Origin: a virus
Virus record (IMG/VR): IMGVR_UViG_3300046522_000252
Span: 2,984-66,983 of that record
DNA: 64,000 bases
Strand: one strand, 5' to 3'
The translations under genes were made by a program, and so were the position numbers. This document shows positions 11,254 through 62,741 of this stretch, one piece after another. Below the pieces are notes generated by a model that was not told where the DNA came from, ran no database searches, and saw only the letters and a program-made list of their open reading frames with translations. Numbering within the stretch: position 1 is the stretch's first letter; each line of letters begins with the position of its first letter.

Positions 11254-12078
11254 TCATACGCCGCACATCCCCTCACACTCATTGATGAAGAGGTTCAGTT
11301 GGCCGCGCTCCTCGGCAGTCGATAAATCAACCTCGTCAAGCGGCTTGAGCGATCTATGGATAAACACCTGGGAGCGTTTCACGCCGGGCATGTTGTCCCG
11401 AATAGCGTGGTCGACCGCGACGGCATCGGCGAACGAGGCGGCGTCATTGTCGCGAAGGTCGCGCCAACCGGCGTCGTTGCGATACGGGCAGAACGTACAG
11501 GCGGATTTTGCTGGCAGCGGGTAGTCGTGGGTTTCAAGCCACTTGAGGCAGTCCCGGCGCGTCATGCGCTTTTCGATCAGCGGCCAACGGTTCTCTATGT
11601 AGCGGTCGCGGGAGGGTTTCATGCGGGCGGCCTCGTCAAGGCTGATGCCTATCCACTGCTCAGCCGCGACCGTCTTTGGGCCGCGCTGGCCGGGCTCCAG
11701 GCCCAGCAACTCACGCATCTTCCTGCGGATTGGAGCGATCTTGAAATGCCGCGTGCATTGCCGATTGAGTGAACCAGGGGCGCCGTCATCGTTAACCGCG
11801 AAGAACGGCGGCCGACCATCGTTTCCGCTGACCCAGGCCGCGCGCCCCATAAGGACGTCGCGCAGGTTCCCGGCGGTGACAACATGCACCGGGAACGGCA
11901 GCACGTTTAAAGACATCATCCAAGCAAGGTGATCATAGACCGGCTGTGGCTCGGCGCCGGTGTCCGCGAAGATGGCGCAATCCGGCATGGGTCCGATTTC
12001 ACCATGCGCGGCCATGAGCGCCATTGTCGTCGACTGGACGCCAGCCCCCAAGGATATCACGCGCAGCTTGACGGTCAT
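11254..12078 (-). CDS. PAPS-reductase-like / adenine nucleotide alpha-hydrolase family protein
   Basis: ISLGAGVQST, FADTGAE, CT..FKI.PI, KSACTFCPY, ECEGMCGV. Confidence 0.75.
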   Translation of the reverse strand: MTVKLRVISLGAGVQSTTMALMAAHGEIGPMPDCAIFADTGAEPQPVYDHLAWMMSLNVLPFPVHVVTAGNLRDVLMGRAAWVSGNDGRPPFFAVNDDGAPGSLNRQCTRHFKIAPIRRKMRELLGLEPGQRGPKTVAAEQWIGISLDEAARMKPSRDRYIENRWPLIEKRMTRRDCLKWLETHDYPLPAKSACTFCPYRNDAGWRDLRDNDAASFADAVAVDHAIRDNMPGVKRSQVFIHRSLKPLDEVDLSTAEERGQLNLFINECEGMCGV

Positions 12079-12079
12079 C

Positions 12080-12373
12080 TCAATACCCCTTCGGAGGAGC
12101 AAAGAGGCAGAGCACGCGGCCACCGTCTTCACCTGCAACAGTGCAGAGATGAAACTTGCCGTCAGGGCTGTTTTTGACGCGCTTGTCCGTGAACGGAATC
12201 GTCTCGCTTTTGGTGACGTACCCGGCCGCCGTTTCCTTGAGGTCAGGCACCTCCCGGCAGTCCTGATCACTGCAACAGTTGAACGGATACGACCACCCGC
12301 TCGGGGCGTCATGCGCCATGGCGCCGGGGCTGAGAAGATGAAACGCGACTGCCGTGGCGACGAGCTTGATCAT
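12080..12373 (-). CDS. Small secreted cysteine-rich protein
   Basis: Signal peptide ending AMA, then HDAPSGWSYPFNCCSDQDC. Confidence 0.65.
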   Translation of the reverse strand: MIKLVATAVAFHLLSPGAMAHDAPSGWSYPFNCCSDQDCREVPDLKETAAGYVTKSETIPFTDKRVKNSPDGKFHLCTVAGEDGGRVLCLFAPPKGY

Positions 12374-12963: not shown

Positions 12964-13638
12964 CTACATCAACCTTGGCCGGTCGTCGGGTCGATCATCG
13001 CCGTCGCCTTCCGGGCGCGGGAGACGTTTCTTGTCCGACGCCACGAATTTTGCGACCTCACGCTGGATCGTGAGCAGGTCGGCATTGATCCGGTCAACGT
13101 GAAACTGGACCGTCGCCGAAAGGTCGTCGATGCTCCTGTCTAACAGGCTAATGCCCAGTTGCAGGCTCGGCGGGAGCGTCGTCGCGTCCGTCGACTTGCG
13201 CAGGTTTTTCAGGTTTTTCCGCTTGGTGTTGAGGAAGGAACCAACTTGGCTGGGCAGGATGGTTGCGTCATGTTCAAACGCCTCTCCGGTCGCCCGGACC
13301 AAATAATCTCGCCCTCTATTCCGCACCGCTATCTGAAACGCTGGCTTGTCCGACAAGGTCAGCCAGAGCGACCCGCGCGCAACTCGATTGATCTTCTGGC
13401 GCATCCCATAGCGCCGCGCGACGATAAGCGCCTGCTCACCCGCAAGGCTATATTCGTCATGATCTTCGGCAAATTTGTCGAGCGCGTGAACAGTGACCAA
13501 CGTTGGGTTTTCTGGATCACTGATCGGGAAGGCATCCGCAAAGGCTAGAGCCAGCTCGACCGCTTGCGTGGTTGATGAGAACATTGACATCGGTTCATCC
13601 TCCTTTTCAAAGCCTGATTTTTTCCTTGAGTTTGCCAA
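12964..13638 (-). CDS. Hypothetical protein downstream of the ParB-like gene
   Basis: 224 aa ORF. Confidence 0.6.
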   Translation of the reverse strand: MANSRKKSGFEKEDEPMSMFSSTTQAVELALAFADAFPISDPENPTLVTVHALDKFAEDHDEYSLAGEQALIVARRYGMRQKINRVARGSLWLTLSDKPAFQIAVRNRGRDYLVRATGEAFEHDATILPSQVGSFLNTKRKNLKNLRKSTDATTLPPSLQLGISLLDRSIDDLSATVQFHVDRINADLLTIQREVAKFVASDKKRLPRPEGDGDDRPDDRPRLM

Positions 13639-14833
13639 TCAGTTTTGCGGCGAGCGCCATGCGCTCGATTGCCGCCACATTCATCGGGAAGGGCTGGTCG
13701 TATTCCCACTTCGCCTCTTCTTCGGCGATCTGGCTGAGAAAGGTTTCGACCCGCGCAACAGTGGCGGCCAATTGCTTCCACTTGCCATTGACGCGCTCGA
13801 CGGCGCTCAGCGAGAGAAGGCGTTGTTTCTCCGCCGCATCGATTTCCTGTTGGGCGGTGATCGCCTGAGTTATGTGGTCGCCGACCATTTGCTTAATGGA
13901 GACGGAACCAAGATCGCGCCGCGTGCCGTGCTCGATTGCATCGATCTGCGCGCGGACATGCTGGGCGAGCGCCAAATGCTGTTCGAGGGCAATGAACCGG
14001 CGACCGTTCGGCGTGAGCACGGCTTCGCGGAATGCTGCCTCATGACTTGTGAGGCGGAAGACGTTGCCGCAGCGCATGTCATAGGTGGATTCCATTTCCT
14101 CCTGCGCCTTTATCGCTTCGCGTTCTTTGCGCCGCCGCTCGACCTCCACCTCTGTTTCCGCCTTGGCTAGTGCATCGACCGCCGCCGCCTTAGCTTTTGC
14201 GTCACGCTCGGCTCGGATTGTTTCGATTTCGGCATAAACCTTGGCGACGATCTTCCCCATGACGCCGCTGGCCTTGAGCGCAGCGAGTGTTTGGCTAATG
14301 GCGGTTTCGGTGATGATCTCGACGTCTTTCTTCTCGCCTCTCTCTTCGCGACCGAACCCGTTGATGGCCCGATAGAGCAAGGGCATTCCGGGACCGTCCT
14401 GGGCGACCTTGGCTTGGGTGCCTTCAAGGGCCCCGTTGCCAGCGGTCTCTAAAATCTTAGAGACCGTCCCCTCGCCGAGGAGCACCTGTTTCGTCACCAG
14501 CCGGGTATAGGCGGCAACGCTATCGAGGACCGCCGCCGCGTTTTTGCCGCGTTGCGTCAGGTTCTCCATCGACATGATCTGCACCATCTGCTGATCGTCG
14601 TAAGACTTAACGGTTGCCTCAATTTCCTTGAGCCCACTCCGGCGCGCCGCCTCGATGCGATGGTGGCCCGCCGCAAGCTCATAGCCGACGCCGTTCTTTC
14701 GTGCCGAAACACCAGCGAAAAAGCCCAGTTCATTGATTGACTGCGACAGGCGTTGAACCTGCTCGTCGTCGAGCGGGTATAGGTCGAAATCACGGAACGG
14801 ATTCGGCTTGAGCGTGGTGATGTCGATCTTCAT
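13607..14833 (-). CDS. ParB N-terminal domain protein with coiled-coil C-terminus
   Basis: LKPNPFR...LSQSINELGF...YELAAGHHRIEAA...MENL. Confidence 0.8.
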   Translation of the reverse strand: MKIDITTLKPNPFRDFDLYPLDDEQVQRLSQSINELGFFAGVSARKNGVGYELAAGHHRIEAARRSGLKEIEATVKSYDDQQMVQIMSMENLTQRGKNAAAVLDSVAAYTRLVTKQVLLGEGTVSKILETAGNGALEGTQAKVAQDGPGMPLLYRAINGFGREERGEKKDVEIITETAISQTLAALKASGVMGKIVAKVYAEIETIRAERDAKAKAAAVDALAKAETEVEVERRRKEREAIKAQEEMESTYDMRCGNVFRLTSHEAAFREAVLTPNGRRFIALEQHLALAQHVRAQIDAIEHGTRRDLGSVSIKQMVGDHITQAITAQQEIDAAEKQRLLSLSAVERVNGKWKQLAATVARVETFLSQIAEEEAKWEYDQPFPMNVAAIERMALAAKLIGKLKEKIRL

Positions 14834-15369
14834 TATTCTTCCTCCATTTGATTGTTTTCCACCCCCAGGGTGAGGCGGTTGTTGCGTGCAGCTTGCGGGA
14901 GTCGCATCGGCCTCAGCTCTGACTGAGGGACGAAATATGCGGCCGGGCGGCCACCATAGGCTTTCAGGAATTGCGGCAACTTCGCCGCGCCTCCCCATAT
15001 CCAGCCACGGAGCACGAGGGTTGGCGCGGAGCCTGTCACCAGGATAAATGCGTGGTCGTCGTGGTCGTCCTCACGCACAATCAAATCATAGTCGTGCCGG
15101 GACCGGGTTCGAACCTGAACGCGCTGGCCGATGTCCCCTGCCTTGAATGTGCAAGTGTCTCCGCCCCAGTATTGCCCGCTCCATTTGGCGACCGCTGCCT
15201 CGCCGCAGGCGCCTTCAATATGCAGGCAAAGACCGCTGACCTGATCCGGGGAGAGCCCGTGATTATCCTTTCGGCTATGCGTCACGCTTTCGTAGTAGCG
15301 CTTGGCTCCGATGAGGGCGGCGTGCTCCAGCTCTTGTTCGGTCAACGTCACGCGGACGAAGCTATCCAT
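14833..15369 (-). CDS. Hypothetical protein, possible PD-(D/E)xK-like fold
   Basis: GACGEAAVA...GDIG..VQVRT. Confidence 0.55.
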   Translation of the reverse strand: MDSFVRVTLTEQELEHAALIGAKRYYESVTHSRKDNHGLSPDQVSGLCLHIEGACGEAAVAKWSGQYWGGDTCTFKAGDIGQRVQVRTRSRHDYDLIVREDDHDDHAFILVTGSAPTLVLRGWIWGGAAKLPQFLKAYGGRPAAYFVPQSELRPMRLPQAARNNRLTLGVENNQMEEE

Positions 15370-16067: not shown

Positions 16068-16396
16068 TGGCTATCCTTTCCGCCGGGGAAGACGACTAGC
16101 TCGGCCTTGTGTTGCAACATGGGAAGCGGCGCGCTGCCGAGCGGCGGAAGAGGCCCGCCAAAGACCCACGCCTTAACCTGGGATTCGCGGACGAGGGCGT
16201 TTTGCGAACTGTAGTTCGTGCCGATGCGATGATAGCGGCGGCGTCCGTCGCCGCGTTCATACAGGTTCCAGTAACACGTCCTGTTTCCGCCGAGCGTGCG
16301 CCTGCCCGTCTCGTCGACGAGGTGTGTGGGCCCCTCGACGGTGCCGACCCAACGCCAGGTAAATCTGGCTTTCAATGCGGTGAGCCACTTCATCAT
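16064..16396 (-). CDS. Hypothetical protein
   Basis: Coupled ORF MMKWLT... Confidence 0.55.
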   Translation of the reverse strand: MMKWLTALKARFTWRWVGTVEGPTHLVDETGRRTLGGNRTCYWNLYERGDGRRRYHRIGTNYSSQNALVRESQVKAWVFGGPLPPLGSAPLPMLQHKAELVVFPGGKDSQ

Positions 16397-16842
16397 CGCG
16401 CGCCCGCCTTCACCCGAGAAGTGTGGCCAACATAGTTGTGATACGGACACCAGTTTTGATCGCGCGGTGTTTTGGCGCCGCAGAACAGATGGCCGCCCGG
16501 CGCGGTCCTATCCATCTCGATAGGCCAGTTGCATTCGTTCCGGTTCAAATCCATCAACGGCACCCGGCGCATATTCTCCGGCGGCGACGGCGGCGGGTCG
16601 TTGCGTGGTGCCGGTGGTGGCGAGGGCACGATCTTTAACCTTGGGGGTGTCGATGGCACGGATGTTCGCCTTTCCCTTGGTTTTGGTGGTGGTGGAGCGA
16701 TGGCCTTTAACTTTTTGTCGCGAAAAATCCGTCCGATGAAAGCATTCCGACCCATATGAAAAACGTCCGCGATCTGCCGCCTGGACAAACCGGCCTGGAT
16801 CATCCCGGTAATTCGTTCTCGCTCCTCGTCGGTGAACGGCAT
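16393..16842 (-). CDS. gcrA: GcrA-family cell-cycle regulator homolog
   Basis: N-terminal GLSRRQIA..MGRNAFIG HTH; C-terminal LMDL...CNWPI...FCG...WCPYH. Confidence 0.85.
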   Translation of the reverse strand: MPFTDEERERITGMIQAGLSRRQIADVFHMGRNAFIGRIFRDKKLKAIAPPPPKPRERRTSVPSTPPRLKIVPSPPPAPRNDPPPSPPENMRRVPLMDLNRNECNWPIEMDRTAPGGHLFCGAKTPRDQNWCPYHNYVGHTSRVKAGAR

Positions 16843-16854
16843 AGCCGTGTCCTC

Positions 16855-17418
16855 CTATGCGATCTCATCGTCATCGTCGGGATCATTGGCGCCGTCGTCA
16901 CCGGCGGCCGGGTCAGCGTCACTGGCGCGGGCAGCTTGTTTCTTTTCCATCGCCGCTTTCCAGTCGGCGAGCATTTGCGCCTGGGCCATCTGCCATTGAT
17001 CGAGCCATACCCGGCCCGGCTCGGAGCCTTCATCGTAGGGGCAAGCGTCGGCACTCTTCCCGGCAAACCCGGCCGCCTCGCCTTCACGGGCGGCCCGTTC
17101 GACAAGCGGCTCCCGGCTAAAGTCCAGCTCGGTCTGGGCGCCAATAGGCAGGGCGAAATAACGGCCGATCTCGGCCCGGCGCCGTTGTTCGTCGACGACG
17201 ATTTGCGGGTCTTCAATCGTTGCGCAGCGCAGGCCGAAATCGATGTCGGACAGGATCACGCCATCGGTCTTGGCAAGCTTTCGAAGGCGCAAGCGCTCGA
17301 CGTTCTCCATCTTGCAGATTTCCGTTTGCGCTTGGATCGCGCGGAAATGGTGCATGTAGAGCGCCTTGGCTTGGGCTGGTGTCAGATCGTGGGAATTGTC
17401 GCCGATGGTCGCGGGCAT
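16855..17418 (-). CDS. Hypothetical protein with C-terminal Rmf/CrpP-like motif
   Basis: EGEAAGFAGKSADACPY....WL..W. Confidence 0.55.
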   Translation of the reverse strand: MPATIGDNSHDLTPAQAKALYMHHFRAIQAQTEICKMENVERLRLRKLAKTDGVILSDIDFGLRCATIEDPQIVVDEQRRRAEIGRYFALPIGAQTELDFSREPLVERAAREGEAAGFAGKSADACPYDEGSEPGRVWLDQWQMAQAQMLADWKAAMEKKQAARASDADPAAGDDGANDPDDDDEIA

Positions 17419-17527
17419 GTGGTCTTCTCCTTTGGGGTTGGAGTGGCCACCGCGTTGCAGGTCCGATAAACGCGGTGGCCACTTTTCCCGCCGGTCTTTC
17501 GAGCCACGGGAAATCAGGCAGGCGACA

Positions 17528-17776
17528 TCATGCCGCCGCCTCTTTGCCGTCCGGCGCCGGGCCAAAGACATCCGGGCGGAGGCTGTAACGGGAAACGCCG
17601 CTCATCTTTTCGACCTCAAGGACGCGGGTCGCGGGGACGATCACCCATTGCATGACGGCCTGTCGCTTGATCCCAAGTCTGCTGGCCAGCGGCACCGGGC
17701 CGCCAGCCCGCGTCTTCGCAAGCTCACAAGCGATTGCGCGCGGGTCCGTCAGAAAGGTTTCTTTTCTCATATCCAT
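17528..17776 (-). CDS. cro: Cro-like (YdaS) regulator
   Basis: AGGPVPLASRLGIKRQAVMQW...VSRYSLRPDVFG; divergent from the repressor. Confidence 0.8.
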   Translation of the reverse strand: MDMRKETFLTDPRAIACELAKTRAGGPVPLASRLGIKRQAVMQWVIVPATRVLEVEKMSGVSRYSLRPDVFGPAPDGKEAAA

Positions 17777-17886
17777 GCCACAGTGTAAGCAAAGATTGCC
17801 CGGTTGCACAATGGGGGTTTACGAAAAATTATTGGCAAGGTTGTATTGCTTATGGCAAAGTTGTGAGAAGGTTAGGGAATAAACCA
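17777..17886. promoter_or_regulatory. Divergent cro/cI promoter-operator region
   Basis: AT-rich gap with several GCAA/TTGC half-sites. Confidence 0.5.
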
Positions 17887-18330
17887 ATGGCGAGAGGGAA
17901 ACCCTCGGACGCTGCGCCGGTGTTACGGCAAAAAAGAATGAGCACAGGGAAACACGAAAGGGATCAGCTCGCCGACCAGGAATTAGGTGAGCGCATCCAA
18001 TACCTTAGAACGGAAATCCTCGGTATCGGTCGCCAGGCCGACTTTGCCGAGCGTCTTGGTGTGACGCGCGGTGCTGTCGGTAACTGGGAGGTCGGGAAAG
18101 GGGTGAAGCGCGCGAACCTCGAACGGATCGCTCAAACATTCACTGTCTCCCTCGTGTGGCTGACCACTGGGGGCGGTGCACCAATTAGCAGGCAGAGCAT
18201 TGATGCGAGACTTGAGCTGCTGCCGCCTGAAGAATATGACCCGCTCTATGAACACTTCCAGGCAATGATAGATAATCGTATGCGATTCCTAGAGCGAAAA
18301 AAGGCGGAAGCGAAGAAGAAAAAGCCTTGA
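17887..18330 (+). CDS. cI: CI-like XRE repressor without an evident S24 peptidase domain
   Basis: QADFAERLGVTRGAVGNWEVG...WLTTG. Confidence 0.8.
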   Translation: MARGKPSDAAPVLRQKRMSTGKHERDQLADQELGERIQYLRTEILGIGRQADFAERLGVTRGAVGNWEVGKGVKRANLERIAQTFTVSLVWLTTGGGAPISRQSIDARLELLPPEEYDPLYEHFQAMIDNRMRFLERKKAEAKKKKP

Positions 18331-18349
18331 AACTATTGAGGAAACCACG

Positions 18350-18799
18350 ATGGGACGAAGTTTCTATGAACCGCTAGCGTCGATAGACAACTGTTCGAAC
18401 GTATCCCCGCTGGCGGACTTTCGCATTAACAGGATAGACAACCAGTCAATTATGTATGCGTCGACGGACGACGGGCAGCAACTCGCCGCTCACATCCGTT
18501 TCGTCGACGAAGCCGCCTGGGTGAACCACGAAGCCAGCGTCAACGCTGCCGCGATGGTTTTACAATTGAGGCTTTCGCCGGACTACGGCGCTGGCCAGAT
18601 CGCCCGGATGATGCGCCGGGGCGTCCGCCCCGACGTCGAACATAGCCACGTCAAGTATTATCCGGCGACGGATGAGTACGGCTATATTTTGCAGTTCTCC
18701 AATCACGGCCCCGTGCCGATCCTTTTGAAGCAATCCGACATTGACGCTTTCCGCGTCAAGGAATGGATCGCCCGCTCCGCCGCACGCGCCGGGCAGTGA
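18350..18799 (+). CDS. Hypothetical protein, likely co-transcribed with the repressor
   Basis: GAGG RBS; followed by hairpin gggaggcg...cgcctccc. Confidence 0.6.
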   Translation: MGRSFYEPLASIDNCSNVSPLADFRINRIDNQSIMYASTDDGQQLAAHIRFVDEAAWVNHEASVNAAAMVLQLRLSPDYGAGQIARMMRRGVRPDVEHSHVKYYPATDEYGYILQFSNHGPVPILLKQSDIDAFRVKEWIARSAARAGQ

Positions 18800-19076
18800 T
18801 CCATCCACGGGAGGCGTGACCGCCGCGCCTCCCGCCGGGAGTAAAAATTTTACCCGGCAAAACTCCCTCCTCAATCACATTTTGCAATTTTTTCTTACTA
18901 GCCACTTGTGCTCCTCAGCAATCTTTGCTTTCATGTGGGCCTCACCACCGCTTTTCGAAGTCCCGGACAGATCGACCAGGCATTCAAGCGGAAGTGGGTT
19001 TTCGGACGCCTGAACGCTGAACCGAAGGGCTGACCGGCGTGAATCGCCGGTCAGCTCAAGTAGGAGGCTATGGCAA

Positions 19077-19298
19077 ATGACTGGCTTTGTGTTCGCCATG
19101 GCGCCGTGCCTCGGCTGCAACCGGATTTTCAGTTTTAACCCGGCGTTGGTTCCTTCGCTGATGTTCGACGGGGAACGCAAGCCGCTATGCGAGAAGTGTT
19201 TCGCATACCTCAACCGGAGGCGCACAGCGCTTCACTTGCCGGTGTTTGTCGCCCCACCAGGCGCCTATCAGCCGATGCCAGAGGAGGAATTGCCGTGA
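19077..19298 (+). CDS. Small Zn-finger protein
   Basis: CLGC...CEKC; AGGAGG RBS. Confidence 0.65.
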   Translation: MTGFVFAMAPCLGCNRIFSFNPALVPSLMFDGERKPLCEKCFAYLNRRRTALHLPVFVAPPGAYQPMPEEELP

Positions 19299-19807
19299 GA
19301 CAGGAAACGGTGCTTGGCGTGAAGCTCGCTGAAAAAGGCTTTGTGCCGCGCAACATCAAATTCCAGATCGCGATTGCGCGATATCAGAATAGCGGCGGCG
19401 AGTACGGCGTGGCGCTTGCCATGTTGAACGCCGCTTTTGGACGGGGAAGCGAAGGCCAGAAGCCGGAAGCTGCCGACAAGGCCGGGAACCGTGAGCCCGA
19501 CGCTGCGGCACGCAAGATGCCAGGCCATGCCAGGCGCGGTGCCGCCGCAATCGGCGCGGTGCAGGGCACGATGCAAAAATCCTTGTTCGACTCCACGATC
19601 TTGCCCGATGGCCGCACGTTGCGCGAGGTCAAATGGAGCGAATGCCCGCGCCTTTCGCGTCGCTATCGCTACCTCTCCCGCGTGCTGATGGCGATCCACA
19701 ACGTCGGCATTCCCGCCGATCCCAACGACACAATCGACAACCTCGTCAATGAGGACGGGTTGAAGGAAATCATCTCAGCGGTGGAGCGGTTCAATGACAT
19801 TCACTGA
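19295..19807 (+). CDS. Hypothetical protein upstream of the Tas-like gene; contains a degenerate array unit and a spacer match
   Basis: GTG start after GAGGAGG; overlaps the Tas-like ORF start. Confidence 0.65.
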   Translation: MRQETVLGVKLAEKGFVPRNIKFQIAIARYQNSGGEYGVALAMLNAAFGRGSEGQKPEAADKAGNREPDAAARKMPGHARRGAAAIGAVQGTMQKSLFDSTILPDGRTLREVKWSECPRLSRRYRYLSRVLMAIHNVGIPADPNDTIDNLVNEDGLKEIISAVERFNDIH

Positions 19808-21392
19808 TCGAAAGAATGATGGCGAAACGGGCCACGACATCAACGCCGATAAGTCCAGTCTGGAATTGCCCGCCTCGCCATCGCCGAAAGACGGGAAGGG
19901 TCCGCTTGCTTTTGCCGACAAGGCCAATGGAGAAATGCCCAACCCGTCCCCCAATGGCGAAACGGTCCATCGAGTGAATGCCGCCGAAACGGCTGCAATC
20001 GGCTTGACTGTTTCGCCGCCGAAAGACGGAAAAGGTCGCCCCGCGCTTGCCGATAAGGCCAAGGTTTCGGTGCCTGATCCGTCCCCCAAAGATGACGCGG
20101 CGGGCCACCCCGACTCTGCCGCTGAGGCCGTTGCAAGTGTGCCCGCCGCGTCATCGCCGAAAGATGAGTTGGGCCATTCAGAGCGTGCCGAAGAGGCCGC
20201 AGACCCGATGCCCGACCCATCGCCGAATGATGGCGCGGCTGGCCGGAAAGCAAATGCAACATCCAGTGAAATGTTGCCCGCCGCGTCATCAGCTATGATC
20301 GACCATCTGGCCGAGCTTCAGGTCCGCCGAAAATTCTATATCGGCGTCGTCAATCGGCAGACGAATGCGGCCAAAGCCCTTGTCCGCCGCGCGCTGGGCT
20401 GGCGCTATGATGCCGAGGACGCCGGGCGGGAAAAGCTGAACGCCCGCGCCGCGCGGATCGTGGCCGCTGCTTTGGCCGGGAAAGAGCAAAAGGCCGAGGA
20501 TGCGGCAGCATTCGGCGCGCTGGCGTTCGATCTGGCGACCATCGCGGCGGCCATCGAGCCTTGCACGACCGCCCGGCATGAAATCGAACTGGAAATGAAG
20601 CGCACCGCCCGCAAGCTGCCGGTGTGGTTCGCGTGGGCGAAGGACGTTAAAGGGCTAGGGGAACTTGGCCTCGCGGCCATCATCGCCGAGGCTGGCGATC
20701 TTTCCGGCTACCCCAAGAAGGGCCACCTCTGGAAACGCCTCGGCCTCGCACCGCTCGACGGCAAAGCCTTTTCGACGTGGCGGATGAAAGGTGGGCTGAC
20801 CGCCGAACAATGGACAGACGCCGGTTATTCGCCGCGCCGCCGGGCTGAAATCTATGCGGTGATTTCGGAACCGCTATTCCGCGCGCAATCGGTCGCCAGT
20901 GGATCATACCGCGCGATCTATGATCGCCGCCGGGAGCATACCGCCGAGACGCACCCGGACTGGACCAAAGCGCACAGCCACATGGACGGGCTGCGGATCA
21001 TGACGAAATATTTAATTCGCGACCTTTGGGCCGCGTGGCGGGCCTTGCATGCCGTGCCTATTCAGGCCGCTTCACTCGTGCCCGCCAACCTATCCGAGAA
21101 TCGCCGGGAGGCCAAAATCTGTCACCCTGAAAGGGTCGGAGGACGCGTGCCGACCGGCGAACCGAACGAGCGGGAGGCCGGGCAGGTTCCGCCTGAAAAG
21201 GCCGGAGTTTTTGTGCCGACCGCTCACCCCAACCGCCGCCGGGAGGCTAACGGACGGATATCTGAAACGGCCGAAAAAAAATTGCCGACCGGCGGCGGCG
21301 CGGAGGCTATCCCAGTCATGCCCGAAAAAGGCCAAAAGACGGGTGCCTCCGCGCCATCATCCGCCACCCAAGATCAAAGAGGTGAACTATGA
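19794..21392 (+). CDS. TasA-like protein (coiled coil + IS110/Nop-type RNA-binding domain, no nuclease domain) with array-encoded low-complexity termini
   Basis: Core about 20295-21040: KGLGELGLAAIIAEAGDLSGYPKKGHLWKRLGLAP...YRAIYDRRR...AHSHMDGLRIMTKYLIRDLWAAWR; no DEDD RuvC or HNH seen; flanked by dual-spacer arrays. Confidence 0.8.
   Translation: MTFTDRKNDGETGHDINADKSSLELPASPSPKDGKGPLAFADKANGEMPNPSPNGETVHRVNAAETAAIGLTVSPPKDGKGRPALADKAKVSVPDPSPKDDAAGHPDSAAEAVASVPAASSPKDELGHSERAEEAADPMPDPSPNDGAAGRKANATSSEMLPAASSAMIDHLAELQVRRKFYIGVVNRQTNAAKALVRRALGWRYDAEDAGREKLNARAARIVAAALAGKEQKAEDAAAFGALAFDLATIAAAIEPCTTARHEIELEMKRTARKLPVWFAWAKDVKGLGELGLAAIIAEAGDLSGYPKKGHLWKRLGLAPLDGKAFSTWRMKGGLTAEQWTDAGYSPRRRAEIYAVISEPLFRAQSVASGSYRAIYDRRREHTAETHPDWTKAHSHMDGLRIMTKYLIRDLWAAWRALHAVPIQAASLVPANLSENRREAKICHPERVGGRVPTGEPNEREAGQVPPEKAGVFVPTAHPNRRREANGRISETAEKKLPTGGGAEAIPVMPEKGQKTGASAPSSATQDQRGEL
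19818..20290 (+). ncRNA. TIGR-like stem-loop guide-RNA array, 7 units
   Basis: Unit: stem-GGCC(A/G)-N9-TGCC..GGCC(A/G)-N9-TGCC-stem; spacer A starts at 19835, 19904, 19970, 20039, 20108, 20177, 20246. Confidence 0.85.
21036..21355 (+). ncRNA. TIGR-like stem-loop guide-RNA array, 5 units
   Basis: Same architecture; spacer A starts at 21046, 21115, 21181, 21250, 21310. Confidence 0.8.
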
Positions 21393-22393
21393 CCATCGTC
21401 GACCCTTGGGAAAACTGGCGGGCCGCATTGGAAAACCCGCGCAAGATTGGCAGCGGGAAACTCGTTGTTCATCCGGGCGGCACGCCGTGGACTGGATTTT
21501 TCCGGGTCCGCAAAAAGGATGGCGACTGGGAACCCGTGCAGTTCTGGCAGGACGATCTAGGCTTGTGGTACGCGACGCGCTCCGGCAAGCCGGTCGATCC
21601 TGACCGCATCCCTGATCTGTTTCTATGGGCGGTGCGCCAGCCGATCAGCGAATTGGCCTTCGACCGCGCCACGGCGGGCAACGGTTGGGCCGACGAACCG
21701 GAGCGGACGCCGGGCATCGGCGACAATTCCGGCGAGGCCGACCCCTTCGACGCTCTGAATATTGAGTGGCTGGGCGAGAAGGAGCTGGTCGAAGGCTTCC
21801 TCAAAATCCCGATCACCTCGAAGGACGAAGCTGACCGCGCAGCCATTTGGGCGACGCGCCTCAACGGCATTGCCAAGAGGGCGGACAAGCTCCACGGCGA
21901 CGAAAAGGCGCCGGTCCTCGTCGCAGGGCGGCGCGTCGACTCCAAGTGGCGGGAGCTGCGCGAGCAGCCGAGCGGAATGGCAATCCTTCTGAAACGGCAT
22001 CAGGACAAATGGTTGCGGGAGCAAGAGAGGCTGGAGCGTGAGCGCGTTGCCGCCGCCGCCGTGGAGGCTGAGCGCTTGCGGATCGAAGCCGAGGAGGCCG
22101 CCGCCAAGGCGCGGACGCCGGACGACGTGGCGGAGGCTGGCGCCAAGGTTGCCGCCGCCCAGGAAGCCGAGCGCGAAGCAACATATCAGCGCCCGCAAGC
22201 CGGGCGAACCGGCGCCAAGACATCGCTCCGCACGTTCCGAACCGGGAAGATTGTCGACTTCGATACTTTCCTGATGGCGGCCAAAGATCATGACGAGATC
22301 AGGGAGGCGGCACAGACCACCGCCAACCGCCTCGCGCGGGCCAAGGTCACGCTGGCGGGGATGGAAATCGTCGAGGAACAACGGACGGTTTGA
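21389..22393 (+). CDS. Coiled-coil phage protein preceding the recombinase
   Basis: 334 aa, AGAGGT RBS, ATGA overlap. Confidence 0.65.
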   Translation: MTIVDPWENWRAALENPRKIGSGKLVVHPGGTPWTGFFRVRKKDGDWEPVQFWQDDLGLWYATRSGKPVDPDRIPDLFLWAVRQPISELAFDRATAGNGWADEPERTPGIGDNSGEADPFDALNIEWLGEKELVEGFLKIPITSKDEADRAAIWATRLNGIAKRADKLHGDEKAPVLVAGRRVDSKWRELREQPSGMAILLKRHQDKWLREQERLERERVAAAAVEAERLRIEAEEAAAKARTPDDVAEAGAKVAAAQEAEREATYQRPQAGRTGAKTSLRTFRTGKIVDFDTFLMAAKDHDEIREAAQTTANRLARAKVTLAGMEIVEEQRTV

Positions 22394-22404
22394 AAGGCAC
22401 GGAT

Positions 22405-23352
22405 ATGAACCAGGCAGTCGCAAGAACCGTAACCCAGGAACAGCCGCCGCGTTCGGTCCTCCACGACATGGCAAGTCGCTTCGGCATGGAGCCAGGCCCG
22501 TTCGAGCTGACCGTTCGCGCGCAGTGCTCTCCGGCACCGAAGAAAGGTGAGAGTTTTCGACCTCTCAGCAAAGAGGAATTCGCCGCCTTCCTACTGGTGG
22601 CGCGTCAGTATGATCTCAATCCGATCACCCGCGAGATTTTCGCCTATCCGAAGCGCGGCGGCGGCGTTGTTCCCATCGTCTCGATTGACGGCTGGGTTAA
22701 CCTCGTCAACTCACACCCGGCCTGCGATGGCTTCGAATTCGATTGGGTCGAGGATGAAAAAGGTCGGCCGATCTCTTGCACCTGCATTATGCACCGCAAG
22801 GATCGCAGCCACCCGACATCCGTCACCGAGTATCTTTCCGAATGCTGGCGCGACACGGACCCGTGGAAAATGCCCCACCGGATGCTCCGTCACAAGGCGC
22901 TGATCCAGTGCGCCCGCTATGCGTTCGGCTTCGCCGGTATCTTTGATGAGGATGAAGGCCAGCGGATTATCGCCGCTACCGCTCTGGAGGCCGCCCCGGC
23001 GCCGAGACCTCCCCGGCCGGGACCGGCGCCCGTCTTCGATCAGGAAGACGCTGAGAGGCCACAGGAAGGCCAGGGAATGGTCATCGATCACGAAGCGGAG
23101 CCGGTTAGCGGCGACGAGGCGGATGATGCCGCGAGCGGCGGCGGTGGCGTTGACGCTCTTGATCTCGACGCCCTGGCCTACTTCGACGAGCTGCGCGACC
23201 GTCTGGCCGAAGCGCCGGACCTGGAAACCGTCGAAGAGGTCTGGACGAACCTTGACCCGATGGCGCGCTTCGAAGGCGACGATGGCGGCCAAGACCTTTG
23301 CCTGAACATCAAAGACCGGCGCGTCAAACAGCTTGAGGAGAAAAGCAAATGA
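22405..23352 (+). CDS. bet: Bet/RecT-family single-strand annealing protein
   Basis: FAAFLLVARQYDLNPITREIFAYP...IVSIDGW...HRMLRHKALIQCARYAFGFAGI. Confidence 0.9.
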   Translation: MNQAVARTVTQEQPPRSVLHDMASRFGMEPGPFELTVRAQCSPAPKKGESFRPLSKEEFAAFLLVARQYDLNPITREIFAYPKRGGGVVPIVSIDGWVNLVNSHPACDGFEFDWVEDEKGRPISCTCIMHRKDRSHPTSVTEYLSECWRDTDPWKMPHRMLRHKALIQCARYAFGFAGIFDEDEGQRIIAATALEAAPAPRPPRPGPAPVFDQEDAERPQEGQGMVIDHEAEPVSGDEADDAASGGGGVDALDLDALAYFDELRDRLAEAPDLETVEEVWTNLDPMARFEGDDGGQDLCLNIKDRRVKQLEEKSK

Positions 23353-27057: not shown

Positions 27058-27300
27058 ATGCAGGAAAAAACGGACTTGGCCACATTCCTCAAGGAGTGGC
27101 GAAAAGAACACGGATTGACACAGGCCGTCGCAGCCAAAGAACTTGGTATCGTGCTCCCGACCTATCGCGGGTTGGAGCAAGGCCGCCTCACCCCATATGC
27201 GCAAGTGGTTAGGATGGCGACCAAGGGTTGGGAAGCCGATGGCGGCCCCTTGCGCATGTTGCTTGAAGCAAGCGGGAGGGCCGATCATGGCCAAGCTTGA
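27058..27300 (+). CDS. XRE-family HTH protein
   Basis: LKEWRKEHGLTQAVAAKELGI..TYRGLEQG. Confidence 0.75.
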   Translation: MQEKTDLATFLKEWRKEHGLTQAVAAKELGIVLPTYRGLEQGRLTPYAQVVRMATKGWEADGGPLRMLLEASGRADHGQA

Positions 27301-28495
27301 GGGTTACAACAACGTCACTTCGTTTATCAAGAGCGGCAAAATGCGCTGGCGCTGGCGGGAAGAAGGCCGGGGCGGAAGGCAAGTCAATCTTCCGGGCAAG
27401 CCGGGCGAACCGGCGTTCGAAAAAGCCTACCGCGAATGCACGAAGGGTGAGACCCCCGAGCAAAAGGCGCGAGTCACCAGCATCTTCGATGCCAAGACCG
27501 TCAACGCCTGCTATCGCCGCCTGTTGCGCACCGCCGAATGGGACGAACTGGACCCACAGACGCAGGACAAGAACAACCGGATGCTGAAAGCCTTCATGAA
27601 GCTCACGGTCGCAGACGATATGGATGTGACATGGGCCGACATGCCGATGGCAGACATCAAGACCAAACATCTGCGCAAGCTGCTTGACGGCATCCGACTC
27701 AATGCTCCGACCGCCGCCAAACACATGCTGGTCGCCATCCGCAAGCTGACCAGGATTGCCATCGAGCAGGAGTGGATTGAGTATGATCCGACCTTCACCC
27801 TTGAAGCCCCGGTGCCGAAGACATTGGGCCATCGCAAGTGGCCGGACGAAATGATAGCCAAGTACCGCGAACGTCATGCGGTCGGTAGTGCCGCCCGGAC
27901 CTGCTTCGAACTGGCCATCTGGCTTGGCAACCGGCGCAGCGACATCGCCCGGCTGACATGGGGCAATCTCATCACCGAAGCGGTCGAGGTCGAGGGTGTC
28001 GACCGCGAAATGACCGCCTTTGCCTTCCGCCAGAAGAAAAATAGCAAGCGCACCGGCGGTAAGGAAATGTTCCTGCCGGTGCGCAAGCAACTGGCCGTGG
28101 CGCTGGAGCCGCTAGACCATGACAGCGAATACGTCCTGCTCACCGGGTACGGCAAGCCGTTCTCTGAAAAGAGCCTGACCGGCATGATGGCCCATTGGTG
28201 CAGGCAGGCGGGGATTCCGGTCAGCAATAAAAAGGAGGGCACGGTCGGCTACACCATCCACGGGCTGCGCAGGAATTTTGGCACCAAGCTCGCCCTCGAC
28301 GGCGCGACGGGTCCGCAAATCATGACCTCGATGGGCCATTCATCGGTTCGCGAAGCCGATCCGTACTTGCAGGAAGCGAATCGCAAGCGTCTCGTTTCCG
28401 ATGCCTTCCTCGAAGGCGAACGGCGCGATGCCGAACGGCTGGCAGCAAAACACCGGGCCGGTTTCAAGGTGGTGAATGGGACGGGCCCAACATGA
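27287..28495 (+). CDS. int: Tyrosine integrase
   Basis: GNRRSD (R), HGLR, MGH, Y catalytic set. Confidence 0.92.
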   Translation: MAKLEGYNNVTSFIKSGKMRWRWREEGRGGRQVNLPGKPGEPAFEKAYRECTKGETPEQKARVTSIFDAKTVNACYRRLLRTAEWDELDPQTQDKNNRMLKAFMKLTVADDMDVTWADMPMADIKTKHLRKLLDGIRLNAPTAAKHMLVAIRKLTRIAIEQEWIEYDPTFTLEAPVPKTLGHRKWPDEMIAKYRERHAVGSAARTCFELAIWLGNRRSDIARLTWGNLITEAVEVEGVDREMTAFAFRQKKNSKRTGGKEMFLPVRKQLAVALEPLDHDSEYVLLTGYGKPFSEKSLTGMMAHWCRQAGIPVSNKKEGTVGYTIHGLRRNFGTKLALDGATGPQIMTSMGHSSVREADPYLQEANRKRLVSDAFLEGERRDAERLAAKHRAGFKVVNGTGPT

Positions 28496-29381: not shown

Positions 29382-29762
29382 TCACCCGGTCCTCCGCTCC
29401 CGGCGCCCGGCGGCATAGTCGGAGACAACCGCGATGGCGGTGACAACCGAGACGGCGGCCATGGCGGCACGCACAAGAATGTCGAGGCGATAGACGCCGG
29501 AGAACAATGTAATGACCGAGGTCAGGTGTGACAGGCCGCACAGAAAAATGAACGCCCCGAACAGTAGCCGCATGGTCGGCCTGACCCGCCCCGGCGGCAC
29601 CTGGCCGATAAACAGCAAGGCGAGGCCGATGGCGAAATAGGCGGCGAAGGTGGAAAGATCGGCGAGCACGTAAAGGAAGATCATCACCGGATCATTCGTC
29701 AGGCAAATCGAATGCTGGCTGTAGCGCTCGGCACCGAAGAAATTCAGGATATCAGTCCACAT
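29382..29762 (-). CDS. Stand-alone ethylene-receptor-like 3-TM domain
   Basis: ADLSTFAAYFAI...LFGAFIFLCGLSHL compared with ETR1 SDFFIAIAYFSI...QFGAFIVLCGATHL. Confidence 0.75.
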   Translation of the reverse strand: MWTDILNFFGAERYSQHSICLTNDPVMIFLYVLADLSTFAAYFAIGLALLFIGQVPPGRVRPTMRLLFGAFIFLCGLSHLTSVITLFSGVYRLDILVRAAMAAVSVVTAIAVVSDYAAGRRERRTG

Positions 29763-60417: not shown

Positions 60418-61079
60418 CAGGCCGCCGCGCCGTTGCTGTTGAATTTGCGGCGGATTTGCATCTGGCGCCGCGTCATCCAAGCCCGCTTGTATTCCACATC
60501 CTTGAACAGCTTCGAAAAGCCGGTGATGTGCTTGAGCCGCAAAACTTCCTCCGGTTCCATCCCCAACTCGTTGCAGATGGCCGCCTCGTCCCACCCGTTG
60601 TCGAGCATCTGGAAAACCATGTTCGCCATGCCGTCGACTGAGTGTTTGCCGCGCGCCCGGTTATGCCGGATGGTCGAGGCCATGCGGTCGTTGATTGACT
60701 TATCGATCACGACAACCGGGAGGAGGCCCTTGCTCCTGGCGAAAATGTCCGGGTTATTCTTGCACACGAAATAGCGGTGGAAGCCGTCGACGATCACATA
60801 TTGATCGTTCTCTTCATCATAGATCGTCACGACCGGCTGGGTGTAGCCGTCGTGGGCGATAGACGTGTACAGGAGCTTCATTTCGATCTTGGCAACGGAA
60901 TTCGGATTGTAGTCGTTCGGCGTCACCTTCTCCAAGGGAACCCACTGTACGTTGTCGACCGGCTGACCGGCCAGCGGGGAAAACCCATGCAGAAAATCGC
61001 GCAGCTCATTGATGACGGCCTGGGGATCATCCGCCGCCTCGACGGCGGCGCGGATCGCGTCTTTAGTTGCGCAGTCCAT
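60417..61079 (-). CDS. ibrB: IbrB-like ParB-domain protein
   Basis: PNDYNPNSVA..EM.LL..SI..DGYTQPVV, VDGFHR, RMASTIRHNRARGKH. Confidence 0.85.
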   Translation of the reverse strand: MDCATKDAIRAAVEAADDPQAVINELRDFLHGFSPLAGQPVDNVQWVPLEKVTPNDYNPNSVAKIEMKLLYTSIAHDGYTQPVVTIYDEENDQYVIVDGFHRYFVCKNNPDIFARSKGLLPVVVIDKSINDRMASTIRHNRARGKHSVDGMANMVFQMLDNGWDEAAICNELGMEPEEVLRLKHITGFSKLFKDVEYKRAWMTRRQMQIRRKFNSNGAAA

Positions 61080-62190
61080 CGACGAACCTCCCGCCCTTTG
61101 TCCCGGCGTTTTTGCTGAACCTCCCGTGAGAGGCGGCAAAGACCGTCAATTTTGTGCCCTCATAGTCGTTCGCCAGGATCGCGCCGATTTGCGTCCTGAC
61201 GAGTTGCGGCTGGATTTCTTCCACATAGCGCGCATCCCAGGCGGCGAAGGATCGCCGCATTTGTTCGCGGTGCTCGTCAGGCACGAGGTTTTCCAGCAGA
61301 TGGTCGCGATATTCGTACCAGTCCGCGAACATGGGCGGCAGGTCTTTTGGCTTGAAGAATTTGTCCTGGAGCTGCCCGGCGGTGTTAATGCCGGAGATGC
61401 GCGAGGTGATCCGGTTCCAGGTATCGCCCTCGATCTCCTGGAGAAAAAAGAGCTGGCGGACGGCGGTCTCATGGTGGACGTTGGAAACGCGCATGTTCGG
61501 AACCGGGACGCCATACTGGTACATGTAGTCATAGAGCTTGCAATAGGGCCAACGGTTGTCGTGAATGGCCTTCCAGACATCCGTGTAGGACCAATCATAG
61601 ATCGGGTACATGGTGAAGTGCTGGCGCCGCTTGTCTTCGACCTTGCCCCACGTCTCGCCCTTGTACGTCTCGTAAGATGTCAGGCCCTTCATTCTCGCTG
61701 GGCTTTCCTCCGCCCGGACACCGGCGATGTGGATCGCCGGAGAATCCGGGAAGTAGTAGCGGAACACCGCCCCGAACATTTCGTGGAAGCGATCCGTTCC
61801 GAACGGGTTTTCCCGGATGCTGATCGGCTCTTTGTCGCGGACCCATTCCCGGCCGGGCTCCCAGCAGTACAGCCACGGCTCTCTTGTCGAGGTGGCGTTG
61901 AAAATCTTGAACGGCACTTGCAGCCACATCGGCTTAATGCGCGGGTCGGTCATCACGACGCGGATATAGTCAATCACGTTTTGCCACTCGGCCTCCTGAT
62001 CGAGAAACAGGACCGGAAGCGGCAGGCGGCCTTTTTCCTCGGCGACGGCCAGCGCTAGGTTCAGGCAAACCGTGCTGTCCTTGCCGCCGGAGAAGTTGAC
62101 GACGATGTTTTCGAATTCGTCGAACAGCCAGCGAAAGCGGGTCATGGCCGCGTCGAAAACATTCTCTTCCCGGTAAAATTTCAGAGACAT
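61063..62190 (-). CDS. ibrA: IbrA-like PAPS-reductase family protein
   Basis: NFSGGKDS, FLDQEAE, GVRAEES..R, YPIYDW...DVW. Confidence 0.85.
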   Translation of the reverse strand: MSLKFYREENVFDAAMTRFRWLFDEFENIVVNFSGGKDSTVCLNLALAVAEEKGRLPLPVLFLDQEAEWQNVIDYIRVVMTDPRIKPMWLQVPFKIFNATSTREPWLYCWEPGREWVRDKEPISIRENPFGTDRFHEMFGAVFRYYFPDSPAIHIAGVRAEESPARMKGLTSYETYKGETWGKVEDKRRQHFTMYPIYDWSYTDVWKAIHDNRWPYCKLYDYMYQYGVPVPNMRVSNVHHETAVRQLFFLQEIEGDTWNRITSRISGINTAGQLQDKFFKPKDLPPMFADWYEYRDHLLENLVPDEHREQMRRSFAAWDARYVEEIQPQLVRTQIGAILANDYEGTKLTVFAASHGRFSKNAGTKGGRFVDGLRN

Positions 62191-62741
62191 CAGGCGCCGC
62201 CTTGGAACGTCTTGCTGACGCGCCGGGAGCTGCGCCGAGGATTGATCAGGCTCGGGCCCACCCGGTGGTCGACGAGGTTTGGGACGTTTACCCAATACGG
62301 CTCCCGTCGCAGCCGGAGCCAGTCGCCTATCATGATGTCAAAGCCGGTCGGGTGCTCATGCCGGGCTGGCCAGTCCGGGTGATAGGCGCGCAACGCTGCC
62401 GAATAACCGGCGGGCAGATAGAAGCATTGGGTCATCATAAAATTGCGGTCCAGGCGACTGCCGATGTCTAAATCCGCCTTCCGCATGGAGAAAAACTGGA
62501 TGACGGTGTTCGGCCGCTGCATGACGGCCCACGCCGCGCGGGCAAGAAAATGCTCGCACAGCACCACGTCATCTTCCATGTGCAGGGCCGGACCGTCGCC
62601 CGCCATATCGAGCGCCCGAAGAAAAGTGTCCATCGCGTCGCGCTTCTCGTCGAAGCACCATTCCGCCGTTGGCAATGCCCTGGTGAGATAGTCTATGAAT
62701 TCCCGGCGGTCACGGACCGCGCGGATGATTGGACGGATCAC
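62190..62741 (-). CDS. GT-A fold glycosyltransferase-like protein
   Basis: LHMEDD, VPNLVDHR..SL. Confidence 0.65.
   Translation of the reverse strand: MIRPIIRAVRDRREFIDYLTRALPTAEWCFDEKRDAMDTFLRALDMAGDGPALHMEDDVVLCEHFLARAAWAVMQRPNTVIQFFSMRKADLDIGSRLDRNFMMTQCFYLPAGYSAALRAYHPDWPARHEHPTGFDIMIGDWLRLRREPYWVNVPNLVDHRVGPSLINPRRSSRRVSKTFQGGA

Follow-up and report, generated by a model that had tools for sequence, protein, structure and literature searches.

A putative stem-loop TIGR-TasA system with its guide array written inside coding sequence in a temperate alphaproteobacterial phage

The DNA analysed here, called the window throughout, is a stretch of 64,000 nucleotides (positions 2,984 to 66,983 of IMG/VR virus record IMGVR_UViG_3300046522_000252), and its + strand carries a gene, tasA, in which two arrays of dual-spacer stem-loop units enclose the coding sequence for a protein core made of a coiled coil and a Nop domain (Table 1). 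An earlier note, made from the sequence alone, had described the locus as a TIGR-Tas-like RNA-guided system; TIGR-Tas systems are compact RNA-guided DNA binders that act independently of a protospacer-adjacent motif. Both arrays were found inside the tasA open reading frame (ORF), not beside it, with seven units at its 5' end (19818-20291) and five at its 3' end (21036-21355). The start of tasA overlaps the end of an upstream gene, termed the partner gene, by 14 nt, and its stop codon is shared with the start of the next gene (ATGA overlap). All spacings between neighbouring units in the window are multiples of three (9 of 9), which fits translation of the array-coded TasA tails; the open frame, the ribosome-binding site and the overlapping stop and start codons likewise suggest that these tails are translated. 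Promoter and terminator scans near the arrays returned nothing above chance.

Each unit consists of an outer stem, a CCA-like box C, a first 9-nt segment (spacer A), a TG-like box D, a small hairpin, a second CCA-like box, a second 9-nt segment (spacer B), TG and the closing arm of the outer stem. The first array has GCC-GAUAA-GGC as its small hairpin, the second CCU-GAAA-AGG. An inverted-repeat search recovered 11 of the 12 units, with arms of 8-16 nt that are 82-100% complementary and separated by 32-38 nt, and unit 6, which has one mismatch and one G-U pair in its stem and fell outside that list, was seen in the layout parse and in the fold. Tandem Repeats Finder reported no repeat at the arrays because stems and spacers vary between units. 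The 7 + 5 arrangement of the earlier note, its 12 spacer pairs, all present at the expected offsets in the parse, and the perfect 15-bp stem that it gave for unit 5 were reproduced, so that the observation of 12 dual-spacer units is confirmed.

Table 1. Features of the tasA locus (positions in the window; tigRNA, guide unit; bits, covariance model score)
Feature	Position	Strand	Description	Evidence or remark
Partner gene	19295..19807	+	170 aa, GTG start; conserved N- and C-terminal domains, variable middle	
Possible relic unit in partner gene	19446..19506	+	peptide GQKPEAADKAGNREP	12.4 bits, E 0.16, filters off
tasA ORF	19794..21392	+	532 codons, single frame; GGAG 7 nt 5' of ATG	
TasA core	20286..21038	+	coiled coil and Nop domain, no nuclease domain	AlphaFold2, Foldseek, VIA-align, profile
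tigRNA unit 1	19818..19882	+	spacer A 19835-19843, spacer B 19858-19866	inverted repeat, parse, covariance model, fold
tigRNA unit 2	19890..19948	+	spacer A 19904-19912, spacer B 19927-19935; box C1 TCC, hence closing pair G-U	inverted repeat, parse, model, fold
tigRNA unit 3	19956..20017	+	spacer A 19970-19978, spacer B 19996-20004; loop 12 nt	inverted repeat, parse, model, fold
tigRNA unit 4	20025..20083	+	spacer A 20039-20047, spacer B 20062-20070	inverted repeat, parse, model, fold
tigRNA unit 5	20091..20155	+	spacer A 20108-20116, spacer B 20131-20139	perfect 15-bp stem; 61.3 bits; fold z -7.0
tigRNA unit 6	20163..20221	+	spacer A 20177-20185, spacer B 20200-20208; arms 20163-20174 / 20210-20221	53.6 bits; parse, fold
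tigRNA unit 7	20228..20291	+	spacer A 20246-20254, spacer B 20266-20274; short loop, 6 nt	inverted repeat, parse, model, fold
tigRNA unit 8	21036..21087	+	spacer A 21046-21054, spacer B 21070-21078; shortest stem, 8 bp	weakest fold, z -1.1
tigRNA unit 9	21101..21160	+	spacer A 21115-21123, spacer B 21139-21147; inner hairpin loop GAAA	inverted repeat, parse, model, fold
tigRNA unit 10	21168..21225	+	spacer A 21181-21189, spacer B 21205-21213	59.4 bits; inverted repeat, parse, fold
tigRNA unit 11	21233..21298	+	spacer A 21250-21258, spacer B 21274-21282; first boxes degenerate (CTA, TA)	36.2 bits with filters off; missed by filtered model search
tigRNA unit 12	21297..21355	+	spacer A 21310-21318, spacer B 21335-21343	inverted repeat, parse, model, fold

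The folding and the covariance model that the earlier note had proposed as checks of the stem-loop structure both bore it out. When the 12 units were aligned, 82.6% of cells paired; shuffled alignments gave 62.3%, none of 500 matching the real units, and sliding the partners lowered pairing to 29-44%. Among the 14 outer-stem pairs, 12 were changed on both sides, and the pairs at alignment columns 12-14 (with 53-55), next to the boxes, were invariant or nearly so. The outer stem appeared in the folds of all 12 units (Z -1.1 to -7.0), nine of which were unmatched by any of 200 shuffles. A covariance model built from the 12 window units was scored with filters off in 18300-22500; the units gave 36-61 bits on the + strand, the - strand gave at most 27.7 bits, and the best non-unit match on the + strand reached 12.4 bits. 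Over the whole window, the matches at E ≤ 1 were 11 units on the + strand and one match on the - strand, at unit 5, which is a palindrome. No Rfam family was matched.

The same layout was found next to homologous genes. Homologues of the core (residues 165-415) numbered 274 at E ≤ 0.001 among the candidates scored (295-563 residues, with variable N- and C-terminal tails), and an exhaustive search for the core returned 2972 cluster representatives at E ≤ 0.001, with 259 at E ≤ 1e-30. Eighteen related loci were compared with the window; six come from genomes and the other 12 from viral contigs, two of which duplicate loci of the genome set. The hosts of these relatives include Pannonibacter, Mesorhizobium and Aminobacter. 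Among 401 genomes sampled from the order of one relative (G001), the core was present in two, both being loci already in the set. Model matches at E ≤ 1 in the window and the 18 loci (180,898 bases) numbered 129, of which 128 lay on the strand of the gene, and they flanked the core directly, upstream or downstream, in all 18 loci, even at 30-36% protein identity. In an alignment of the 117 distinct units from the window and the 18 loci, which was fitted to the covariance model and so favours the structure, 89.4% of cells paired, against 66.2% when shuffled and 25-48% when slid, and cells changed on both sides numbered 418 against 139 expected. Among the 115 non-redundant units, the CCA consensus is kept by 72 at box C1 and by 74 at box C2, the TG consensus by 83 at box D1 and by 91 at box D2, and 71 have a loop of 9 nt; both spacers are 9 nt long, and neither any spacer A nor any spacer B is repeated. 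Since 110 of these 115 units lie inside + strand open frames of at least 150 codons, belonging either to tas or to the upstream gene, this clade writes nearly its whole array within coding sequence.

Hypervariability of the 9-nt segments in homologous loci had been set beforehand as a test, and it was observed. In four near-identical loci (L001:2300-3830 and, at the same coordinates +/-3, L002, L010 and L012), the core is 94% and the stems are 96% identical, against 29% for the 9-nt spacers. Two of the four are prophages of one Pannonibacter genome, and these two near-identical prophage copies, carried by one cultured strain, differ in every spacer. Along the unit, identity over the four loci falls from 1.00 at the second C of box C to 0.72 at the third base of the box and then to 0.17-0.44 within the 9-nt spacer; the first base of box D stands at 0.47-0.58, and the G after it is again at 1.00. 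The boundaries of spacer turnover are thus sharp to a single nucleotide. Third codon positions of the core are 0.874 identical over the same loci, so that neutral drift is no explanation for the replacement of the spacers. To judge from these alignments, the conserved entity is the RNA, not the peptide. A root-metagenome contig shares with the window the flanks, the core and the C-terminal array (16 differences) and has a different N-terminal array, the stretches 19836-19866 and 19902-20298 being swapped for other sequence (101 and 122 letters); the two arrays therefore turn over independently.

These observations bear on the reading of the repeats as protein-level tandem repeats only, in which disordered Pro/Ser/Ala/Lys-rich tails of a DNA-binding protein would give rise to hairpins as a by-product of repeated codons. 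Such a reading would account for the placement of all 12 units within the ORF at spacings in threes, for the recurring G[QH]xxxADKAxxx[LV]P peptides of homologous proteins and for the many clade units in long open frames. It does not account for stem covariation far above the controls, for the strand specificity of the model scores or for a variable tract of exactly 9 nt that lies off codon boundaries and is bounded by CCA and TG. Moreover, units of one RNA layout fall in two different codon phases and so spell different peptides (of the 110 in-frame units, 77 are in phase 2, 31 in phase 1 and two in phase 0), and the protein itself has the fold of a guide-RNA-binding Nop domain, as described below. 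Repetition at the protein level alone is therefore regarded as very improbable.

The protein core was modelled by AlphaFold2 with a mean predicted local distance difference test score (pLDDT) of 89.8 and a predicted template modelling score of 0.85, and the model is all-helical with two long helices. The structure prediction and Foldseek search suggested in the earlier note placed TasR and TasH at positions 1-10, with TasR first at E 1.5e-5, and IS621 after them. By VIA-align, the core superposed on TasH (9W03) with Z 16.1 and a root-mean-square deviation of 2.7 Å over 202 aligned residues, and on TasR (9MTY) with Z 15.6 over chain residues 112-299, the RuvC domain lying outside the aligned part; the Tas structures as a whole ranged over Z 15.0-16.1. 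The 9MTY entry is the TasR complex described by Faure et al. 2025 (PMC12045711). Nop5, Nop56/58 and Prp31 gave Z 6.8-8.1. Searched against the PDB, a profile of the family matched 9mty_A (E 3.5e-11) and, less strongly, TasH chains (E about 1e-3), and none of the IS110 recombinases. Because the structural alignments begin at TasR residue 112 and TasH residue 64, past the nuclease domains of both, the protein corresponds to TasA, a nuclease-free coiled coil and Nop protein; the array supplies the codons for the residues N-terminal to its core. Neither Pfam nor structural alignment revealed a DEDD/RuvC or HNH domain, in line with the coiled coil and nuclease-less Nop-like core proposed from the sequence.

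It had also been expected that automatic pipelines would label the protein an IS110 transposase. This held in part: PHROG 4285, annotated 'transposase', matches at E 1.2e-14, whereas PF02371, the only Pfam match, stays below threshold (17.7 bits against a cut-off of 21.3, E 0.0048), and public sources label the homologues 'hypothetical protein'. Those two matches, with the structural likeness to ISCro4 and IS621 (Z 13.0-13.5, over their residues 121-314 only), are also what speaks for decay of an IS110-family transposase, whose DEDD domain would have been lost and which would keep bridge-RNA-like remnants and no function of its own. The Tas proteins are nevertheless closer both by fold and by sequence profile, the family is large and intact, to go by its 2972 cluster representatives, and the gene holds a fixed position next to a conserved partner gene in phages. 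In place of one bridge RNA with two loops, the locus has 12 regular dual-spacer units, and the phage genome contains a single tasA copy. Decay from a transposase is accordingly given hardly any credence. Equally little is given to the view that the hairpins act as DNA, as cruciforms or single-strand hairpins serving as recombination, replication or packaging sites, for while the inverted repeats are just as present in DNA and exonuclease and RecT genes lie directly downstream in the window, the stems of the 117 units tolerate G-U pairs (U-G occurs 13 times at the closing pair and 17 times within the inner helix), the asymmetric CCA/TG boxes are recognised on the + strand at 36-61 bits and on the - strand at no more than 27.7, and an exonuclease or RecT neighbour is found next to tas in only one of 16 other records.

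In the portions of three studies compared here, stem-loop TIGR arrays have variable palindromic stems, two spacers of 8-12 nt, a box C of CCA and a box D of UG, and TasA represses transcription under RNA guidance (Faure et al. 2025, PMC12045711; Xu et al., 10.64898/2026.09.09.750476; Guan et al., 10.64898/2026.08.11.744272). The main text of Xu et al. reports a CUU motif at the stem bases as frequent, not defining. The window matches every testable sequence-level feature of the stem-loop TasA class except this motif.

Target sites were sought in the geometry that follows from the 8-nt 3' overhangs and the 'C - 5' rule reported in the part of Faure et al. (PMC12045711) drawn on here, namely spacer A followed by the reverse complement of spacer B, and in its mirror form, each with gaps of 0-2; spacers paired across different units served as controls. 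In the phage's own 66,983 bases, the best matches were 16/18 (unit 1 at window 19351, and unit 10), and the controls were equally high. No match of at least 17/18 was found in the 18 loci, where counts at 16/18 equalled those of the controls, nor for the 115 units in 13 whole phage records and four loci (629 kb). Exact scans of a viral contig collection, made for units 5 and 6 only, gave zero and one match, the latter in an unrelated contig of 54% GC.

A different result was obtained in the Pannonibacter genome that carries two related prophages (G003), of which 2.19 of 4.6 Mb were searched (contigs C1 and C3). Of the 12 guides of this genome, one, from a resident prophage, matched 18/18, in the predicted geometry and with no gap, at G003 C3:689524-689541. 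The chance expectation for this match is 0.0002-0.0014 by base composition, and none of 132 control pairings reached 18/18. The site comprises positions 42-59, in the variable arm, of a tRNA-Ser(GGA) gene, which is a candidate natural target of the relative's guide and not of the window's guides. An integrated element of about 11.3 kb lies at this tRNA gene (G003 C3:689483-700892), with an integrase gene directly after the tRNA and with the last 16 nt of the tRNA gene repeated 11.3 kb downstream, bounding the element. It encodes head-decoration, capsid/protease and portal proteins, TerL, TerS and a primase-helicase, and no tail genes were found among its eight ORFs scanned; we take it to resemble a capsid-forming phage satellite or a defective prophage. 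Matches of 17/18 in the Pannonibacter sequence stood at control level (four against about seven per replicate, for 115 units). A second 18/18 match, with a gap of 2, was given by unit L019:2334 of an unrelated viral contig at G003 C3:237440-237459, just upstream of an ORF start and overlapping a GAGGA ribosome-binding site; because its chance expectation is about 0.04, it may be fortuitous and was set aside.

Taken together, the RNA-guided TIGR-Tas-like interpretation is supported, and we consider it highly probable that a temperate alphaproteobacterial phage here carries a stem-loop TIGR-TasA system whose guide array is written inside coding sequence. Several observations weigh against this. 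Neither the phage itself nor 12 related phage records yielded a target for the window's 12 guide pairs, and the exact target in the relative is a single match. Several window units deviate from the consensus boxes: box C1 is CCA in only 4-5 of the 12 (elsewhere CCG, CCT, TCC, TCG or CTA), and box D1 is TG in eight, with box D2 TG in all 12. The CUU stem-base motif (CTT in DNA) occurs in none of the 10 inter-unit linkers of the window and is weakly enriched in the clade, where 26 of 116 units carry it against a background of 13%. Finally, the GC content of third codon positions is lower in the array parts of tasA (0.60 and 0.63) than in the core (0.74), and the true tasA start could for this reason be further downstream.

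By analogy with PlTasA, BlTasA and MbTasA, the operon transcript, or transcripts starting inside the operon, would be cleaved in the stretches between units, releasing hairpin guides of about 60-70 nt, each of which would be held by a TasA dimer through its box C/D pairs. The two spacers would then read opposite DNA strands, spacer A pairing with one and spacer B with the adjoining 9 bp on the other, and the bound, nuclease-free complex may block transcription or access to the site. Were the guides cut from the mRNA that encodes TasA, production of guide and of protein would compete.

Like PlTasA (PMC12045711; 10.64898/2026.08.11.744272), BlTasA and MbTasA (10.64898/2026.09.09.750476), as presented in the parts of those papers compared here, the window protein is a solo coiled coil and Nop protein borne by a phage. 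It differs from them in that the array of its clade is almost wholly intragenic and partly placed in a second gene, the partner, in that the window lacks the CUU processing motif, and in that the alphaproteobacterial lineage is unnamed in the main text of Xu et al. The dual-repeat TasR and TasH (9MTY; 9W03 and related) are the closest solved folds, and box C/D logic and tandem 9-nt spacers are common to both kinds of system; the window protein, by contrast, lacks RuvC and HNH domains, its units have variable stems where theirs have conserved edge repeats, and these units are about 60-70 nt long, not 36 nt. With the IS110 bridge-RNA recombinases (IS621 8WT6/8WT9, ISCro4 9T56) it has in common a coiled coil with an RNA-binding domain and the weak PF02371 match, whereas it has no DEDD domain, many guide units instead of one bridge RNA, no element ends and a single copy. 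The Nop5 and Nop56/58 proteins of the box C/D small nucleolar ribonucleoprotein (1NT2, 3NVI, 3PLA) share the Nop fold and guide RNAs with two guide segments between C/D-type boxes; they are much more distant, with Z well below those of Tas and IS110, and their target is rRNA, while that of the window system would be DNA, to go by the Tas papers. No fibrillarin or L7Ae partner and no K-turn motif were seen, no search aimed at such partners having been made.

Intragenic stem-loop arrays and TasA-mediated repression are already reported in the preprint of Xu et al., whose survey, according to its text, covers 20,096 tas loci. Intragenic-array TIGR-TasA is thus already described, and the window locus is a well-supported further example of it. 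The main text of that preprint does not mention Alphaproteobacteria, Rhizobiales, prophages or neighbouring genes, and the loci compared here may still be in its supplementary tables; among the papers listed, none joined TIGR-Tas with any of these four subjects. What the window adds is a complete temperate phage with guides wholly in coding sequence, where pipelines see a 'hypothetical protein' or a 'transposase', together with a conserved upstream partner that also carries units, spacer turnover sharp to the nucleotide and one 18/18 candidate target in a relative. The natural targets of TIGR-Tas and the route of spacer gain are still unknown according to the discussion of Xu et al.; the Pannonibacter strain, with its two prophage copies of differing spacers and its tRNA-Ser match, may make both questions testable.

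Homologues of the partner gene lie directly 5' of tas in 12 of 16 other records, and in a Sinorhizobium meliloti record partner and tas have adjacent locus tags. The partner family has 50 members, labelled 'hypothetical' and without a Pfam domain. For the partner protein itself, no Pfam or PHROG family, no PDB sequence match and no Atlas match were obtained; its AlphaFold2 model is poor (pLDDT 61) and disordered in the middle (pLDDT below 50 at residues 49-90), and Foldseek returned nothing for it at E ≤ 0.001. In relatives, the middle of the partner contains 0-4 unit-encoded repeats. The possible relic unit in the window's partner gene occupies the position equivalent to unit 1 of the relative locus L001, and its 12-nt first spacer and weak stems suggest that it is probably degenerate. 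A partner gene that carries part of the array is not mentioned in the main texts of the TIGR-Tas papers compared. The conserved partner gene is a candidate accessory factor. A more far-reaching proposal would make TasA and the partner a two-gene module with all guides inside both genes, aimed at attachment-site tRNA genes or rival integrative elements, for which the 18/18 match of the Pannonibacter prophage guide to tRNA-Ser(GGA), next to the 11.3-kb element, would be an example. In it, the spacers would be rewritten by a dedicated, nucleotide-precise mechanism, which is proposed because the scaffolds are 96-100% identical while the spacers are randomised. We hold this proposal to be rather unlikely.

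The virus record has 66,983 bases (CheckV estimate 100%) and contains tail, portal, capsid and terminase genes. An integrase gene is at 27143-28495, and a CI-like repressor gene (17734-18330, + strand) faces a Cro/YdaS-like gene (17528-17809, - strand). Within its + strand operon, tasA follows the CI-like gene and precedes those for exonuclease and RecT, which agrees with the earlier placement of the system in the early operon of a temperate phage. The host lineage is judged alphaproteobacterial from a GcrA-like gene and from the relatives in Pannonibacter, Mesorhizobium and Aminobacter. The nearest cultured phages show only 60-80% identity, over parts of structural genes. The phage was found in rhizosphere and root metagenomes; of the six sequencing runs listed as containing it, none is an RNA run. 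A Pfam scan of 65 window ORFs revealed no reverse transcriptase.

Some other genes of the window were recorded. Two PAPS-reductase-like genes and a gene for a protein with a ParB N-terminal domain are encoded on the - strand (11254-12312, 13607-14998 and 61063-62295); for these, the tasParB arrangement described in the part of Faure et al. (PMC12045711) drawn on here was ruled out, as they are far from tasA and on the opposite strand. The GcrA-like cell-cycle regulator gene (PF07750, E 5.6e-14) adjoins a gene for a ribosome-modulation-factor-domain protein (PF04957, E 9e-7), at 16393-16842 (-) and 16855-17571 (-), and both belong to a leftward operon that starts at the Cro-like gene. A small protein resembling the N-terminal domain of ethylene receptor 1 (PF25487, E 2.3e-18) is encoded at 29382-29762 on the - strand.

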